52,401 nucleotides of DNA, from sequence record NC_049466.2. One strand, 5' to 3'. Each line of letters starts with the position of its first letter. Within the stretch, counting starts at the first letter, position 1. The notes below the pieces were generated by a model. That model saw only the letters and a list, made by a program, of their open reading frames with translations, was not told the origin of the DNA and searched no databases. Below are positions 2,741 to 48,857 of this stretch, piece by piece. A program made the translations under genes and the position numbers. The stretch comes from Escherichia phage vB_EcoM_4HA13.

Positions 2741-3624
2741 ATATTCTGCATGTCATTTTTTATTGGTGTACAACAATATTAGCATGACAACTTGAAGCAC
2801 AGTGTGATTATGTTTGGCAACATAGAACTCCCTGAGTTTGGCCGCTCAAAGTTCCCGTCACCATGTAGAGAGTAAGAATAAGATTCGAAACTGTTGTTTC
2901 AACTAAGCATGACTCATCCCTAAAGAAGCTGGGACAGCTCATGTAGTACCCTGCTGTTTCCGAGAGTTGCAACAGGTTAAGCATGTCCAATTGTTCCAAT
3001 ATTGTCACAGTCCTATTATAAAGGCCCACCCACAAGCCGGGACTATTTAGACATGATTGGAACTTTTGGTTCATGCGATTGTAGAGAAAGTAAATTCGGT
3101 AAGAGAGCGAATACCGGACATTGTTCCGATTACAGGTATCGCCTACGCCCCGAAATTGAGCAACAAATATTGTGACAGTATTGCCTCAACAATGGCATGT
3201 GTTGCGTAGCGACAATCGTACAATATCCGCATGTAAGAATGTGCCAAACTGTTAGGGGACTAATCACCTCGAAGATACGGTGAACGTGGCAATCTAGCAT
3301 GTGGATTCGTTACGAAGATTGTGACAATAATCAGCATGTAATATTGTAACAGTATTGTGCTAACCCGCATGAATACTGGCTCTCAGCCAAGCGAAGGCTT
3401 TATCATTGCATGTAATATTGTGACAATATTGGGATTTTTAAAAGATTTATTCTTTTTATTTATTCTTTATTGTCGGTTTACAGCACTTGCTCAGCGAACT
3501 TTGAATGTGCCAAATACGTTCGAAATTGCTGTGAGTGTGGAAACCAATTAGTTATAAATGTGCATGTGATATTGTGACAATATTCTCCATTTGGCGGGGA
3601 GTGAAGTTGCAATATTGCATGTCA
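2741..3624. repeat. Array of related about 25-bp repeats built around the palindrome AATATTGT-G-ACAATATT, often preceded by GCATGT
   Basis: Copies near 2998, 3166, 3318, 3334, 3406-3433, 3560-3587 and 3609; the 3414-3430 copy is a perfect 8-1-8 inverted repeat. No credible ORF in 2631-3837. Confidence 0.6.
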
Positions 3625-3837
3625 TTCTTAGTCTAATTGCATGAAAGATAGGGCTAATTCTGTATGAATATTGGATTCAACAGGTGTCAATGTTGATACA
3701 GAATAAGCTCCAATTTATTCAACTTGATAGTTTGGCACGTATTGTGTCACATACTCCCTGATGCTTTAAGGTGGATTAAGGAACGAAAAAGCCTCCACAA
3801 CCGTCTGACGGAGTTTAATTTAAATTAGGAGTTTAAA

Positions 3838-4574: not shown

Positions 4575-4730
4575 ATGAATGATGACAATCGTTTCACCAA
4601 TCTGTTATTAGGTCAATTAGTTAATCAAGGTGTGAAGCCGAACAAGTTCGACCGTTTCTTCAATAGTTTGGTGAAATGGTTGGTCCTTGGTTTCGTTGCA
4701 TTTATGGCATTTGGAGAATTTCTGAAATGA
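4575..4730 (+). CDS. Hypothetical small membrane protein (51 aa)
   Basis: ATG at 4575; hydrophobic C-terminal segment WLVLGFVAFMAF; below ORF-track cutoff. Confidence 0.3.
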   Translation: MNDDNRFTNLLLGQLVNQGVKPNKFDRFFNSLVKWLVLGFVAFMAFGEFLK

Positions 4731-4948: not shown

Positions 4949-5115
4949 TACTCCTTCGTCATATATCTGGAACCCTTTATGTGTGCACCGATGATTATTA
5001 TTTCGCGCAATATTGGAATTCTACGCAGAAGAAATGGCGAATATCTCAAATATTGCGTTCATCTTTGCAGAATAATTGTGTAAGAATTGGAAACAATTTC
5101 CTACGCAGCAAATAA
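4945..5115 (+). CDS. Hypothetical small protein (56 aa)
   Basis: ATG at 4945 with GAGGA RBS; below ORF-track cutoff. Confidence 0.3.
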   Translation: MILLRHISGTLYVCTDDYYFAQYWNSTQKKWRISQILRSSLQNNCVRIGNNFLRSK

Positions 5116-5131
5116 CAACCGGAGAATTATC

Positions 5132-5389
5132 ATGACTCGTACAGGAATGATGCTTGTTCCGCGTAGTGGTAATTCTCTTGGGGATTTCACTCCGTATAAA
5201 GTGTATACAGTATTATCAGGAACTGGTGAAGCCAATTTGTCACCAGTTGCTTTGCGTTTAGGCCACGTTGTTCACTCAGAACGTTCATGCAATGTTCGTG
5301 ATGACAAAGGAAATATCCGTTTTGTAACTTTGGACTTCTTTCGTGAATTTAGAATGAAATCAGAGTTGGGAGATTTGTTCCATGAGTGA
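5132..5389 (+). CDS. Hypothetical protein, member of a three-gene paralog set
   Basis: Start at internal ATG with GGAGAA RBS; shares a YK-[IV]-[VY]-[AT] segment with the next two genes. Confidence 0.5.
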   Translation: MTRTGMMLVPRSGNSLGDFTPYKVYTVLSGTGEANLSPVALRLGHVVHSERSCNVRDDKGNIRFVTLDFFREFRMKSELGDLFHE

Positions 5390-6174: not shown

Positions 6175-6525
6175 ATGTCAAACGTAAAACAGTACGACGA
6201 TACTAACACTGGTATCATTGGTAAGAATGACTACAAACAGAAAGATACACATCCTGACCAACGTGGTCGTGTGAATATTAAAGGTTTGTGGTTTTGGGTA
6301 AGTGGTTGGGACAAAATGGCAAATGGCCGTCAGTTCACTTCTCTGGCATTCACTGAAATGACTCAGGCAGAAGTTGACACTATGATGGAGAAACGTGCCG
6401 CTAAATCTGCTCCACAGCAGCCTCAACAGCAGCAACAAGCTCAGGCTCCAGCTCAGCAAACTCCACCAGCAGGTCATCCGTCTCAGGAACCGCCGATGGA
6501 CTTTGATGACGATATTCCGTTCTAA
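6175..6525 (+). CDS. Small protein with Q/P-rich linker and a C-terminus identical to the E. coli SSB tail (EPPMDFDDDIPF)
   Basis: C-terminal 12 residues match the SSB tail as I recall it; N-terminal about 75 aa is W/F-rich but not recognisably a full SSB OB domain. Confidence 0.6.
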   Translation: MSNVKQYDDTNTGIIGKNDYKQKDTHPDQRGRVNIKGLWFWVSGWDKMANGRQFTSLAFTEMTQAEVDTMMEKRAAKSAPQQPQQQQQAQAPAQQTPPAGHPSQEPPMDFDDDIPF

Positions 6526-6583
6526 TTGATTTATCGATGCCATTCCACTTCGAGTGGCATCTATTAAACAAACTGGAGGAAAT

Positions 6584-10003: not shown

Positions 10004-10253
10004 TGCGGACTGGTTACAGCCCGGTGAAGTAATTTTCCACGAACCCCGTGGGCATTATTATGAATTACTTCATCGAACTTTAATTAAGTCTGACGTAAAA
10101 GGTGGAAGCTGGTCGAAAGGCTGGTGCTACCAAGAAGTGAAATCGGTGGAAGTGTTGAAGAATTGTATTCGACATGAACCACCAGCGGGAGAAGTTTATT
10201 CCCGACCGAACGAATTGTTCGACGAAGATTGGCGACTTGTTACTCCAGTGTAG
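9972..10253 (+). CDS. Hypothetical protein
   Basis: In-frame ATGs overlapping the end of the upstream gene; start uncertain. Confidence 0.35.
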   Translation: MDMYSMQRIFSADWLQPGEVIFHEPRGHYYELLHRTLIKSDVKGGSWSKGWCYQEVKSVEVLKNCIRHEPPAGEVYSRPNELFDEDWRLVTPV

Positions 10254-10383
10254 TTCCAAGCTGGAACCTTGATGTTCCAAGCGGGTTTGTAACTCGTTTG
10301 GGACTTCTTCTGACCCTTCGGCATTAGTAGGAAGTGCATCGGAGAAGTTTCCAAATCAATTAAAGCCACAACTGCATTATACA

Positions 10384-10500
10384 GAATGTGTCAAAATTCT
10401 GTCAAGAAATATTCCAAATATTCCACGCCAAAGGAATAGCGGAATAATAAATAATTTATTCTAATTATTATTAAATTTTGGAATATTGGAATAATATTGA
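10384..10500. repeat. AT-rich iteron-like cluster (AATATTCCA / TGGAATA units)
   Basis: Tandem and inverted copies of AATATTCCA directly upstream of motif copy P3. Confidence 0.5.
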
Positions 10501-10520
10501 AACATTAGTTGGAAGAAAGA
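10498..10520 (+). promoter_or_regulatory. Conserved motif copy P3 (GAAACATTAGTTGGAAGAAAG)
   Basis: Intergenic; followed by a long hairpin. Confidence 0.5.
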
Positions 10521-10526
10521 AACAAC

Positions 10527-10614
10527 ATCTTGAAGCATTCTTGTAACTTGGTAGTCCGTCCGGCGCCGTGACGTGTGAGAATGTTCGAATCATTCTACAA
10601 GAGTGCTTCAAGAT
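10527..10614 (+). ncRNA. Long imperfect hairpin with tRNA T-arm-like apex (GAATG-TTCGAAT-CATTC); candidate RNase III site or tRNA-like element
   Basis: 19-bp inverted repeat 10527-10545 / 10596-10614 with one mismatch; apical 5-bp stem with 7-nt loop TTCGAAT. Confidence 0.4.
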
Positions 10615-11327
10615 GGAATGTTTCCATCAATGTCCCGAGTATCTTGGTATCCGTTAGCAAGAACTCACAACCTAAACTTACAGTATAATCTGGCAGGTTA
10701 TCCACATAGGTTTTACGACATGTAGGGTTATTGATTTAGTTTAGACGCTATATCAATCGAACTTAGTACGAATAAGCAAGCTGATAGGGCTGAATAATTA
10801 GAGGTAATGACCTCATGCTTATGATTGTCGGTTCACAAAATTTGTATGGCTCATGTTAATTGGTTTTGAAGGAAGTTCAACTCACAATTATAGACCTTGA
10901 GCCAACATCAAATTGCTCTTATAGAGATACAGGAGATACGTATCACCGCTATTTGTTTCGCCTGACTAACGAAACAGAGAATGTGACAAAGGCTAGTCAC
11001 TGGAGTGTCGGCCTGTATCACTATAAGGGTAATTCCTGCAAGCCAGCCAGCGCCAGCCAAGCGCTACGGCATAAAGAGTGTGATTATATGGGTGGTGGTT
11101 TGCGTGTCTCAGACGTTACGGTGTTGCGCACAATGGCGCATCCTCAGAGTTCCTGTATCGCTTGAGTTGGGGCGCAAGTCTTCACCCACATAATCATACA
11201 GAATTGGAACAAACGCTTGGCAGTGGCTTGAATTTCGGGCTATTTGTGCAAGTCTGTGGTCTACTTTCAGTGGGCTAAAAGATAGAGAAACGTCACATTA
11301 ATTGAATCGAAAATTGGAGACATTCCT

Positions 11328-11627
11328 ATGATTCGTAAACATTCAGCAAGGGTTATAAAAGCAAAGAATGTACACACCGGAGAGATTGAAGCTTACGCTT
11401 TAATTGGTGGTGTATATTTTCTTGCTGGCTGGGAGAAATCCTATAAAAATCCTGGATTCAGTTTTATCGGACTAAATGACGAAACTGCATCATTGTTCGA
11501 AGAACGTGTTAAGTATTCTGCAAGCTTCTTGGAGTATTCGTTTGGTAAATCCATCAAACAACTGCTTTCCAAATCTTTCATTCACGAGTGGACTACCAAA
11601 CAGGAAGTCTACGGAGTTCCATTTTGA
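11328..11627 (+). CDS. Hypothetical protein
   Basis: ATG with GGAG RBS after about 1 kb of non-coding DNA. Confidence 0.5.
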   Translation: MIRKHSARVIKAKNVHTGEIEAYALIGGVYFLAGWEKSYKNPGFSFIGLNDETASLFEERVKYSASFLEYSFGKSIKQLLSKSFIHEWTTKQEVYGVPF

Positions 11628-13134: not shown

Positions 13135-13471
13135 CAAAGTCACTTTGAATCCCATTCCTAATTGGAGTGGGCTTCAATTTGTGCATAATCCAAACACCAT
13201 TACATGAGCTTTCGACGGTAAGCAATGTTGGGAAATTTGTTGTGTACAAATTGAAGTAGTTTTCTGAGTCTTACGACGGGCCTAAACTGCCTGAAGTTAT
13301 TGTGACTGTTTTATTCATTTAAAATAAATGCAAACGATTCTGAAATGCGTGTAGCAGCTTAATTAAATTTAAGAAGCTCTCCGTGGTCTTTCGATTCCAT
13401 GTAAACAAATTCGACGCATTGTGTCTCCGTGATGTGATTAATAAAACGGAGTTCAAATTAAAGAGGTATCC

Positions 13472-13903: not shown

Positions 13904-14015
13904 TAATGGGGCATACTTCAATGAGTGTCTTATTATTAGAGTTGGGAGGTAGGTCGATGCCCAAGCTCGTGGCCCAGATAGGGCACTCTTTGAAGTATTC
14001 TAATTTGGAGAAGTT

Positions 14016-47691: not shown

Positions 47692-48857
47692 TGACTAAGC
47701 GCTTACAATACCCAACTTATTGGGCATCTGGCGGCACAGCAACTGACCCTGACTTGGACACAACTGCACCAAGTTATGAAGCAAACCGCTACAAACAACA
47801 TGGCTGGCACGCTGAAAAGCCTCCAAATTTTTGGCAAAACTTCTTGTCTCAGATAACTGACGAGAAGATTATTGCTCGCATGGTTGATGGGTTTCAGTTG
47901 TTTGACTCAAGTGTTACTTATTCAGAAGGTGCAGTTTACCGAAAGGGTGACAAGTTTTACAAAATTGAGTCTGGTGTTGAGCAGGAAATTCTGGAAGTTA
48001 AGTTGGCTGTGTACCAGTCCCTTATTGATGGAATGGATAGACTCCTTAGTGACCACCTATCGGCAGACAACCCACACCAAATCACTGTTGATAAATTAGT
48101 TGGTGGTGGATACATCAAGACGGATGTGGATAAGTTCTTTGGCGACCCAAACGACCCACAAACCATTGTGTTCCACAAAGCACAGAAGGGTGCTGGTGTT
48201 CATGGTGAAACTGCTACATCAACTGGTACACTTCCTGCTGCAACTGGCGGGACTTTCACTGGTGATGTTATATTCTTGGATGGTGTGATTATCCAAGTAA
48301 CACCGTCGAAATCTATTCATATGAATAAGGCAACAGCTTTATTTGAAATTGTGAATGGGACATATTCCATTGGTGTTGATGCCAACGGGAATGGGTACAT
48401 TGTAGGTACGTCTGGCACTGCGTTAATTATCTCAGAGTTAAATCTGGATACATTGACGATGAAGTATAACAACTCATATGCCCTTCCTCCCCCATTTATT
48501 AGAGCAAATATGTGCTCAGGTTTGAGTGATGGCAGTGGCATTGGTGTGTGGACTTTGGACACTCCAGCAGACCCAGTATTTGCTGACGGATTGCAAGTTG
48601 ACAATAACGCCGCAGTTCTCACGTTTGAGAGTATCGCCGGAATTCCGGTAACAGTTCATTTGTTAGTAACATTGGCAGATGGAACAAAGCAGTCTATTGT
48701 AAAAGACTTTGCTGACTGGAACTCACACCCACAAACTGGGAGCTTACAGACAGTTGTCGGCAAAGCGTTTGGTGGAACTGACCCTAAATACTTCCGTGAA
48801 TATACGGTGTATCCAACTCTGACAGCTCGACAGAAAACAATGTTGGTGAATAAATAA
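47691..48857 (+). CDS. Tail fibre protein (paralog 1)
   Basis: Shares an HG-x-TAT-x-TG...TGGT-x-GDVIF block with the next gene. Confidence 0.55.
   Translation: MTKRLQYPTYWASGGTATDPDLDTTAPSYEANRYKQHGWHAEKPPNFWQNFLSQITDEKIIARMVDGFQLFDSSVTYSEGAVYRKGDKFYKIESGVEQEILEVKLAVYQSLIDGMDRLLSDHLSADNPHQITVDKLVGGGYIKTDVDKFFGDPNDPQTIVFHKAQKGAGVHGETATSTGTLPAATGGTFTGDVIFLDGVIIQVTPSKSIHMNKATALFEIVNGTYSIGVDANGNGYIVGTSGTALIISELNLDTLTMKYNNSYALPPPFIRANMCSGLSDGSGIGVWTLDTPADPVFADGLQVDNNAAVLTFESIAGIPVTVHLLVTLADGTKQSIVKDFADWNSHPQTGSLQTVVGKAFGGTDPKYFREYTVYPTLTARQKTMLVNK

Follow-up and report, generated by a model that had tools for sequence, protein, structure and literature searches.

What does a phage keep in about 1 kb of DNA that holds no gene? 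The question is raised by positions 10254-11327 of Escherichia phage vB_EcoM_4HA13 (Sabourvirus, Chaseviridae; record NC_049466.2), whose genome of 52,401 bp was analysed over its whole length, hereafter the window, and in which all long open reading frames (ORFs) lie on the plus strand. This gap is non-coding, and a non-coding gap of 0.6-1.3 kb following the anti-restriction gene and one small ORF was found in every Cleopatravirinae genome examined, i.e. Carltongylesvirus, the Yersinia PYps phages, Pel53, Faunus, phiA050, the Suwonvirus phages PM1 and PP101, the Loessnervirus phages Y2, SSEM1 and Nougat, and several metagenomic contigs. In database records the gap is either left blank or filled with short 'hypothetical proteins'. 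Its parts always come in the same order: a hairpin at a stop codon, a terminator, a weak phage promoter, a leftward sigma-70 promoter, an AT-rich tract, a strong phage promoter, an RNA, and the Shine-Dalgarno (SD) sequence and ATG of the next gene. The genome paper of 4HA13 makes no mention of promoters, terminators, intergenic stretches or RNAs, and the PYps papers, the Tiny paper and the Chaseviridae profile by the ICTV (the international committee for virus taxonomy) are silent on the region; the latter gives transcription promoters as 'not yet identified'. An initial annotation, made from the sequence, had suggested a replication origin, an RNase III processing site or a non-coding RNA as candidate roles. 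From the analysis described here we conclude with high confidence that the gap encodes a conserved, structured plus-strand RNA, which is transcribed from a phage promoter.

The structured RNA of the gap

The stretch from the strong promoter (10498-10517) to the next start codon measures about 815 nt and is protein-free. It is predicted to fold with -271 kcal/mol (z = -6.3), the antisense strand being less stable by 30 kcal/mol, and the two best long inverted repeats of the genome are both located inside this 1 kb. The helices are kept by compensatory substitutions in at least six lineages, these changes exceed what is seen in shuffled as well as in slid controls, and the G.U pairs are strand-specific. 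In addition, four single-stranded motifs are invariant, namely GGGCUGAAUAAUU, GA[GRRAG]UC, CAAACG and GUCACA. The non-coding RNA suggested by the initial annotation is strongly supported by compensatory changes, and it extends much further than claimed, over the entire ~815 nt and not just the 88-nt hairpin.

The 3' domain (11078-11297, plus strand) was tested with a MAFFT alignment of 17 sequences from at least six lineages and the corresponding RNAalifold structure. Paired cells amounted to 93.4%, compared to 78.9% in column shuffles (reached in 0 of 500) and 37-45% when the partners were slid by 1-3 columns. Double-sided changes affected 16 of the 27 pairs (0 of 500 shuffles), and the covariation score was 0.515 versus 0.248. 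Folding of single sequences gave one architecture everywhere, consisting of a closing helix, CAAACG, hairpin II, hairpin III, GUCACA and the SD sequence. The long closing helix H1 pairs 11078-11104 with 11173-11199 over 27 positions and surrounds a variable multi-branch interior (11078-11199), and the distal part (11209-11297) comprises CAAACG as a single strand (11211-11216), hairpin II (11215-11253), in which a bulged G is invariant, hairpin III (11257-11277) and GUCACA, again single-stranded (11292-11297). Since the frequent G.U pairs are valid in the plus sense only, they fix the strand of the RNA.

Further upstream, block D (10772-10823, plus strand) is about 90% identical across genera and represents the most conserved piece of the gap; it folds into a stem (AUAAGCA/UGCUUAU) around a near-invariant loop (AGCUGAUAGGGCUGAAUAAUUA; GGGCUGAAUAAUU) and carries a covarying hairpin at 10801-10814. 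For the middle domain, independent single-sequence folds were used, because MAFFT and RNAalifold lost the register of its divergent helices. According to these folds, the rod (10846-10904, plus strand) has the same topology in eight of nine lineages, with helix sequences that differ: nested helices a, b and c, a purine-rich apical loop of 5 nt, GA[GRRAG]UC, and a 3-nt bulge on the 3' side. The outer pairs of hairpin c occur in at least five compensatory versions. A likeness between the rod loop and the CR-I element of RNase P (GAGGAAGUCGGAC...CAGGGC) was discarded, as this motif folds locally into a hairpin, has not been retained in 4HA13 and comes with no match to an RNase P model. The following domain X (10911-11034, plus strand) consists of a 23-bp helix formed by 10911-10933 with 11012-11034, which encloses hairpins at 10954-10976 and 10983-11000. 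It is lineage-variable and tolerates insertions, shares pieces with Suwonvirus PM1, and differs from the relative L132 by compensatory changes (UGUUUCG/CGAAACA against UGCUGAGAG/CUCUCGAAGCA). Inserted at this site are a gene for an HNH endonuclease in phiEcoM-GJ1 (hereafter GJ1) and a promoter with a small Zn-ribbon ORF in PM1 and in L025.

Directly after the strong promoter lies the hairpin HP1 (10519-10628, plus strand), in which 10526-10545 pair with 10596-10615. The arms of this 20-bp stem are 95% complementary over 20 nt (fold z = -5.3), and the tip folds in a tRNA-like manner, with a D-like loop (10546-10555), a hairpin (10557-10573) and an apex GAAUG-UUCGAAU-CAUUC that is a canonical T-arm (10579-10595). 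HP1 is flanked by invariant sequences, GAAACAACAUC and GAUGGAAUGUUUCCAUC, of which the latter forms an invariant small hairpin at 10612-10628, and its long stem is kept by compensatory changes. Six aligned type-A sequences have 37 pairs, nine of them with double-sided changes, and no pair of the lower stem is broken; a UA-to-CG exchange occurs in the T-arm. Covariation is also seen in the small hairpin that follows HP1 (GAUGGAA/UUCCAUC, GAUAGC/GCUAUC, GAUGGC/GCCAUC and GGCAGCAA/UUGCUGUC).

In BLAST searches the tRNA-like tip was found only at this locus, in 38 records of Chaseviridae phages, and other relatives carry at least six unrelated versions. The tip of PYps23T and flopper is different and also has a T-arm; unrelated tips are present in Faunus and Pel53, in phiA050 and in L129; Loessnervirus, L025 and PM1 have a minimal loop, into which about 110 nt are inserted in SSEM1. 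L128 and L129 are identical downstream and differ in their HP1 tips. A tRNA gene was ruled out, since ARAGORN, run in standard mode on the window and on six of the tips, reported none and a match to RF00005 was absent at E ≤ 10; only the T-arm is canonical, and the mitochondrial mode of ARAGORN returned anticodons and registers for the tips that are mutually inconsistent. Also dropped was the idea that the tips are widely mobile modules, as BLAST found the type D tip in phiA050 only and the tRNA-like tip at this locus only. As a separate observation, the phiA050 tip (L020 3545-3640) and the SSEM1 insertion (L125 ~3700-3800) have a motif in common, CGGAGUCCAC..GC..GCCGAUAA..GUCUGGACAGCU, which suggests an insertable structured RNA module; this motif had no other BLAST site and no Rfam match.

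The compensatory substitutions keep base pairs and not a protein. The ORF 10860-11165 (101 aa), which the initial annotation had already considered unlikely, belongs to no PHROG or Pfam family and shows a non-protein substitution pattern with stops: in L132, which is ~93-95% identical, its translation is only 75% identical and contains an in-frame stop, and in Faunus it is frame-shifted and stopped. Across the gap all three frames contain many stops in every lineage, and the test for protein coding was negative, with no ORF common to the lineages and no family match, so that the claim of no credible ORF within 10254-11327 is upheld. It is therefore very unlikely that the gap consists of unannotated or decaying coding genes or represents the remnant of a mobile intron or homing endonuclease. 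Such an origin would fit the small 'hypothetical proteins' of several records, the ORF annotated as 'SbcC' in GJ1, which is an HNH endonuclease, and the small Zn-ribbon ORFs inserted with their own promoter in some relatives. However, a search for group I and II introns was empty even at E ≤ 10, and the flanking genes are intact and separate, which leaves nothing to splice.

With respect to existing records, PHROGs of HNH endonucleases are matched by the 'putative exonuclease SbcC' of GJ1 (L001 2941-3342; record 11029-11430), which also contains a CxxC...HH motif; this ORF is inserted into the variable part of the structured RNA and is absent in 4HA13 and most relatives. Short coding sequences (CDSs) for a 'hypothetical protein' overlap RNA domains in PYps3T, Mangalitsa, PYps23T and SSEM1, as does the start of gp30 in Y2 (loci L019 2083-2391, L021 2256-2351, L022 2784-3080, L125 3746-3853 and L124 from 4047). 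Those that overlap covariation-supported domains are probably spurious or mis-started.

Rfam 15 gave no match at the gathering threshold in the window, and at E ≤ 10 the window gap and five relatives gave only noise: matches in the window and SA91KD had E about 1-9, far below gathering, and the gaps of the four other relatives gave nothing. The Rfam models for tRNA, tmRNA, Y RNA, RNase P, group I and II introns and GOLLD/ROOL left the leader unmatched. When the block D pattern was searched in 241 M metagenome records, two of 94 matches proved to be real after profile filtering, both of them Chaseviridae-like, and all 71 matches in GTDB genomes were recognized as chance by profile filtering. 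For this large multi-domain RNA with its exchangeable tRNA-like tip, neither Rfam nor the searchable literature has a description, and we regard it as a candidate for a new RNA family.

Promoters, terminator and the origin question

The strong phage-polymerase promoter (TGAAACATTAGTTGGAAGAA, 10498-10517, plus strand) is annotated as 'promoter 5' in GJ1 and SA91KD. It contains an exact GAAACATTAGTTGGAA at 10499-10514, a motif with seven copies in the genome at ≤3 mismatches, all on the plus strand, compared to 1.0 expected (0 of 100 shuffles reached this count); exact CATTAGTTGGA cores are located at 123, 6091, 10503, 11871, 12636 and 21701. Judged by its sequence, it would qualify as a promoter of the phiEcoM-GJ1 type (CTGAAACATTAGTTGGA, plus strand, intergenic, over-represented), and by analogy to T7-type promoters transcription may start near 10511-10513. 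A weak variant of this promoter (CGGCATTAGTAGGAAGTGC, 10319-10337, plus strand; core form CGGCATTAGTAGGAAG) corresponds to 'promoter 4' of phiEcoM-GJ1 and is the third part in the fixed order; its TTCGGCATTAG is kept in all genera.

Upstream of both promoters, an intrinsic-terminator-like element (10274-10314, plus strand) closes the early operon. It consists of a hairpin of 14 pairs (10274-10304) followed by TTCTTCTGAC; the T run after the hairpin, TTCTTCT, is broken by C. The block is conserved in relatives, and the ortholog in SA91KD is annotated as a rho-independent terminator. A small hairpin (GTTCCAAGCTGGAAC, 10253-10267, plus strand) overlaps the stop codon of the last early gene, within a block (10246-10311) that is kept in relatives. 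From 10320 to 11327, a scan for terminators on the plus strand was empty.

A sigma-70 promoter is predicted on the minus strand (10376-10405), with TTGACA at 10405-10400 and TATAAT at 10381-10376 separated by 18 nt (scan score 12/12). Its hexamers are perfect and 17-18 nt apart in 12 relatives from six lineages with differing spacers; they are found in 4HA13, L132, L128, all Carltongylesvirus-like phages, Faunus, phiA050 and Suwonvirus. That the hexamers are kept while the spacers differ is the pattern expected of selection on a promoter. The spacer itself is a covarying dyad (10381-10402) with a conserved loop, whose G.U pairs are valid in the plus sense only. The predicted promoter points towards the end of the early operon, and neither a gene nor an intrinsic terminator was located downstream of it in the ORF list and the terminator scan. 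The sigma-70 interpretation is complicated by this dyad and by Loessnervirus and L025, in which the leftward hexamers are just 8 nt apart (L124/L125/L127 ~3555-3580).

Many relatives carry a cassette between two copies of the strong promoter, comprising a phage promoter and a small Zn-ribbon ORF that ends in ...CPxCxxDIRH* and whose stop codon falls inside the next promoter (CAT TAG; L021 1569-1745, L019 1571-1786, L023 1629-1805, L002 ~2770-2960, L123 ~1970-2160 and L129 ~115-300). In PM1 and L025 the cassette is placed inside the RNA; 4HA13, GJ1 and PYps23T do not have it.

Of the features in the initial annotation most are indeed present, among them the copy of the promoter motif, which is enriched and orthologous to promoter 5 of GJ1, and the long hairpin (20-bp stem, 10526-10615) with its T-arm-like apex; missing from it were the terminator, the leftward sigma-70 promoter and the ~815-nt chain of RNA domains. 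Two further items exist as sequences and are without meaning, i.e. the TATAAT hexamer at 10684-10689 and the perfect DnaA box TTATCCACA at 10698-10706. Both are located in the variable linker (10629-10771, plus strand), the sole non-conserved stretch of the gap. A DnaA-dependent origin of the host type, marked by this 9-mer with a TATAAT promoter nearby, is highly improbable: the box is solitary, a second exact copy occurs at 48125, and 23 copies with one mismatch against 16.8 expected are at chance level. In the next lineage (L128-L130) the box has decayed to TTATCTACT, and other genera do not have it at this position. The TATAAT hexamer is without a -35 partner, does not appear among the results of the promoter scan and has been lost in L132 (~95%), the closest relative. 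With a single box, no enrichment and no conservation, the test for such an origin was negative, and box and hexamer were dropped as functional sites.

An origin of the T7 type has to be considered separately. The AT-rich tract between the divergent promoters (10408-10495) contains six GGAATA repeats, of which the first two (10408-10425) run in minus sense and the other four (10433, 10441, 10480 and 10488) in plus sense. The iterons of the initial annotation are therefore real: GGAATA/TATTCC occurs six times within 100 nt (10410-10493), compared to a maximum of three in 500 composition- and block-preserving shuffles, and three of the four exact genome copies of AATATTCCA are located here (10408, 10417 and 10479, the last on the minus strand). 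The right-hand TGGAATATTGGAATAAT of the tract is conserved, and relatives have GGAATA(A/T)T / TTATTC copies at the same place, with number and arrangement varying by lineage. With regard to an iteron origin, the repeats are in mixed orientation, and no initiator was recognized among the neighbouring proteins (Pfam, PHROG, PDB). In terms of sequence layout, phage promoters at 10319 and 10498 flanking an AT-rich tract at 10408-10495 would suit a T7-type origin. According to this idea, transcription from the phage promoters and from the divergent host promoter would open the GGAATA tract, and the phage DNA polymerase would use the transcript as primer. A pre-primer role like that of ColE1 RNA II might even fall to the long structured RNA. 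Such an origin would be compatible with the leader model.

We rate a T7-type primary origin as possible though doubtful. The position of the tract, at about 20% of the genome right after the early region, and the significance of the repeat cluster are in its favour, as are the T7-like polymerase, the DNA polymerase and the primase/helicase that the family encodes; divergent promoters would moreover be expected to add negative supercoiling to the tract. T7 replication starts at its primary origins phi1.1A and phi1.1B, and each T7 origin requires a promoter for T7 polymerase (PMC8373140). On the other hand, Loessnervirus and L025 lack the AT-rich tract and the adjoining strong promoter, no initiator protein is known, and the DnaA box, not being conserved, gives an origin no support. 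The cumulative GC skew climbs monotonically without an inflection at 10.4 kb, but with every gene on the same strand this carries no information. Taken together, the sequence makes a T7-type origin at 10319-10520 plausible, and it would be able to coexist with the leader.

The RNA at the probable early-to-middle junction

The gap is bordered on its 5' side by genes of an early type, encoding an L-Ala-D-Glu peptidase-like protein, an ArdA-type anti-restriction protein and the product of a small ORF ending at 10253, and on its 3' side by genes for conserved proteins without an assigned function in the PHROG and Pfam comparison; none of the proteins neighbouring the gap had a Pfam, PHROG-function or PDB match that gave a function. 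The first middle gene (11328-11627) has an SD sequence, GGAG, at 11316-11319 and an ATG at 11328 (11316-11330, plus strand), and its product of 99 aa is 100% identical to AC4HA13_0026. With moderate confidence, we favour the view that this gap is where a phage with its own single-subunit RNA polymerase, as in T7, passes from its early to its middle genes, and that the RNA is a long, structured 5' leader that would be cut at stems of the RNase III type.

In this model, the terminator would end early transcription by the host polymerase, and the phage polymerase would start at 10498-10517 and produce the structured RNA, which would form the 5' leader of the middle operon. Its assignment as leader follows from the absence of a terminator between promoter and gene, and the leader would act in cis. 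In Loessnervirus, a phage promoter is located directly before the 3' domain, which thus behaves as the leader of the downstream gene. The near-perfect helices of 20, 23 and 27 bp might be processing stems for host RNase III, as are the T7 R sites and the rRNA stems. Cleavage at these stems would then provide the downstream mRNA with a stable 5' end protected by a hairpin, and the inserts, which vary between lineages, would be set free as small RNAs. The invariant loops near the ribosome-binding site may be contacts for proteins or the ribosome that set the translation of the first middle gene. We propose RNase III processing as such only tentatively and by structural analogy. Near-uninterrupted double-stranded RNA of at least about 20 bp, as expected of an RNase III substrate, is provided by HP1 (20 bp, 95%), by the helix 10911-10933/11012-11034 (23 positions, 87%) and by H1 (27 positions, 78% Watson-Crick and more with G.U).

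Several points weigh against this model. Cleavage by RNase III, the start of transcription and the action in cis are steps that we infer; related sequences inflate the shuffle control of the covariation tests, though not the slid control, and the alignments were made by MAFFT. The leftward sigma-70 promoter and the GGAATA repeats are left unaccounted for by a leader, and a simple leader would need neither a middle part open to inserts nor exchanged tips. Finally, Loessnervirus has a hairpin, a U-rich stretch and a new promoter between block D and the 3' domain, and due to this split the 5' half may be a separate, possibly trans-acting RNA.

The latter point leads to the alternative of one or more trans-acting non-coding RNAs, in which HP1 would be a carrier whose tip is released and acts on the host, e.g. 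as a decoy for tRNA-targeting defences or enzymes, and block D with the rod would make up an RNA of its own, which would bind a factor of the host or the phage. Together we judge these proposals to be rather unlikely. The tip is swapped between otherwise near-identical genomes with invariant flanks, two unrelated tips both have canonical T-arms, and the locus adjoins an anti-restriction gene; furthermore, the 5' half in Loessnervirus is cut off from the gene leader by the hairpin, U-tract and new promoter. However, the tip lacks a 3' CCA and a consistent anticodon, tips B, D and F as well as the minimal tips are not tRNA-like, and no target is known. Moreover, the tRNA-like tip is the same in 38 records and is thus not hypervariable overall.

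A related proposal retains the leader and extends it: the ~0.8-kb transcript might be a family-specific, multi-domain functional RNA, either as a pre-primer similar to ColE1 RNA II, which would couple transcription by the phage polymerase to origin firing, or as a carrier of cargo, in which RNase III would free exchangeable tips that counter tRNA- or RNA-directed defences of the host. We give this extension, with its two possible roles taken jointly, a low probability. The structured 5' leader at the early-to-middle junction remains the interpretation that we prefer.

The next large non-coding gap of the genome (13090-13471) might also encode an RNA. Here, GCAAACGAUUCUGAAAUGCGUGUAGCAGCUUAA reads ANDSEMRVAA-stop (13330-13362), without an in-frame start codon and with an in-frame TGA at 13303. 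A comparison with the coding piece of permuted tmRNA in Rfam was weak (22.7 bits, gathering 47, E = 0.013); in the tag frame all four differences among three phages are synonymous, and the hairpins after the tag covary (relatives: L022 ~5014-5159, L020 ~6399-6530 and L023 ~5280). ARAGORN found no tmRNA in this gap, and a tRNA-like domain was not located; the RNA may be a divergent tmRNA-like or tag-encoding one. In relatives (L022 5745-5800 and L023 5765-5835), the same gap contains a tRNA-Arg annotated in Pel53 and a candidate in PYps23T with 25.6 bits (gathering 29), none being present in 4HA13. According to the PYps paper, this tRNA is gained or lost between near-identical phages. More long inverted repeats with arms of 17-21 nt and 76-88% complementarity are located in the early region at 3340-3430, 3653-3708, 4586-4682 and 5006-5057, and near the second gap at 13172-13256 and 13913-13998.

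Chaseviridae are candidates for biocontrol and therapy, and 4HA13 is the ICTV exemplar of the family. As the early/middle switch, the region with its large RNA offers a defined target for transcript mapping, RNase III assays and work on the origin, and the annotations of 'SbcC' in GJ1 and of small hypothetical proteins in PYps3T, Mangalitsa and Y2 need correction. If an origin or a cargo RNA were confirmed, this would be a new example of RNA-based control in phages with a T7-type polymerase, and if the cargo or pre-primer role held, then together with the tag-like RNA of the second gap Chaseviridae would carry an unrecognised set of RNAs that mimic components of translation.

Comparison with known systems

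The terminator, the promoters and the AT-rich tract are ordinary for a phage with a T7-type polymerase, and the closest counterpart is the junction between genes 1 and 1.1 of T7. Both phages have an RNA polymerase of the single-subunit type, phage promoters that follow the early region in tandem, an adjoining AT-rich tract and a long RNA hairpin directly after a promoter; in T7, this is reportedly where the R1.1 site and the AT-rich stretch of the primary origin are found. Unlike in T7, the AT-rich tract of 4HA13 lies between promoters, contains GGAATA repeats and adjoins an embedded perfect leftward sigma-70 promoter, and the transcript continues for about 700 nt of conserved multi-domain structure without a T7 counterpart. 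There is no sequence similarity between the two, and their likeness would be one of layout.

With the RNase III stems of the T7 R sites and of 16S/23S rRNA, the RNA shares near-perfect helices of 20-27 bp that flank a variable insert and covary. In contrast to these, the helix bases of 4HA13 have a conserved sequence (GUGAUUAUAU / AUAUAAUCA; CAUC / GAUG). T7 R sites are hairpins of ~50-60 nt with an internal loop, whereas 4HA13 has multi-branch domains of 120 nt.

The tip of HP1 resembles tRNA-like modules, i.e. the tmRNA domain, YrlA, the tRNA-like structures of plant viruses and mascRNA, in its canonical T-arm with a G53-C61 pair and the loop UUCGAAU, in a GG-containing D-like loop without a D stem, and in a coaxial run into an acceptor-like stem. 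However, this acceptor-like stem runs on as a 20-bp duplex with neither a free 3' end nor CCA, the tip has no consistent anticodon, and ARAGORN and the Rfam tRNA, tmRNA and Y-RNA models were unmatched; the likeness to YrlA and tmRNA, which the Rfam scans did not match, is one that we presume. Likewise, ColE1 RNA II is what we take to be an analogous case, a structured untranslated transcript of several hundred nt beside an opposing promoter, which would fit the idea of an origin primed by a transcript; there is no homology, and the opposing promoter of 4HA13 differs in its position, upstream of the long RNA and with no overlap.

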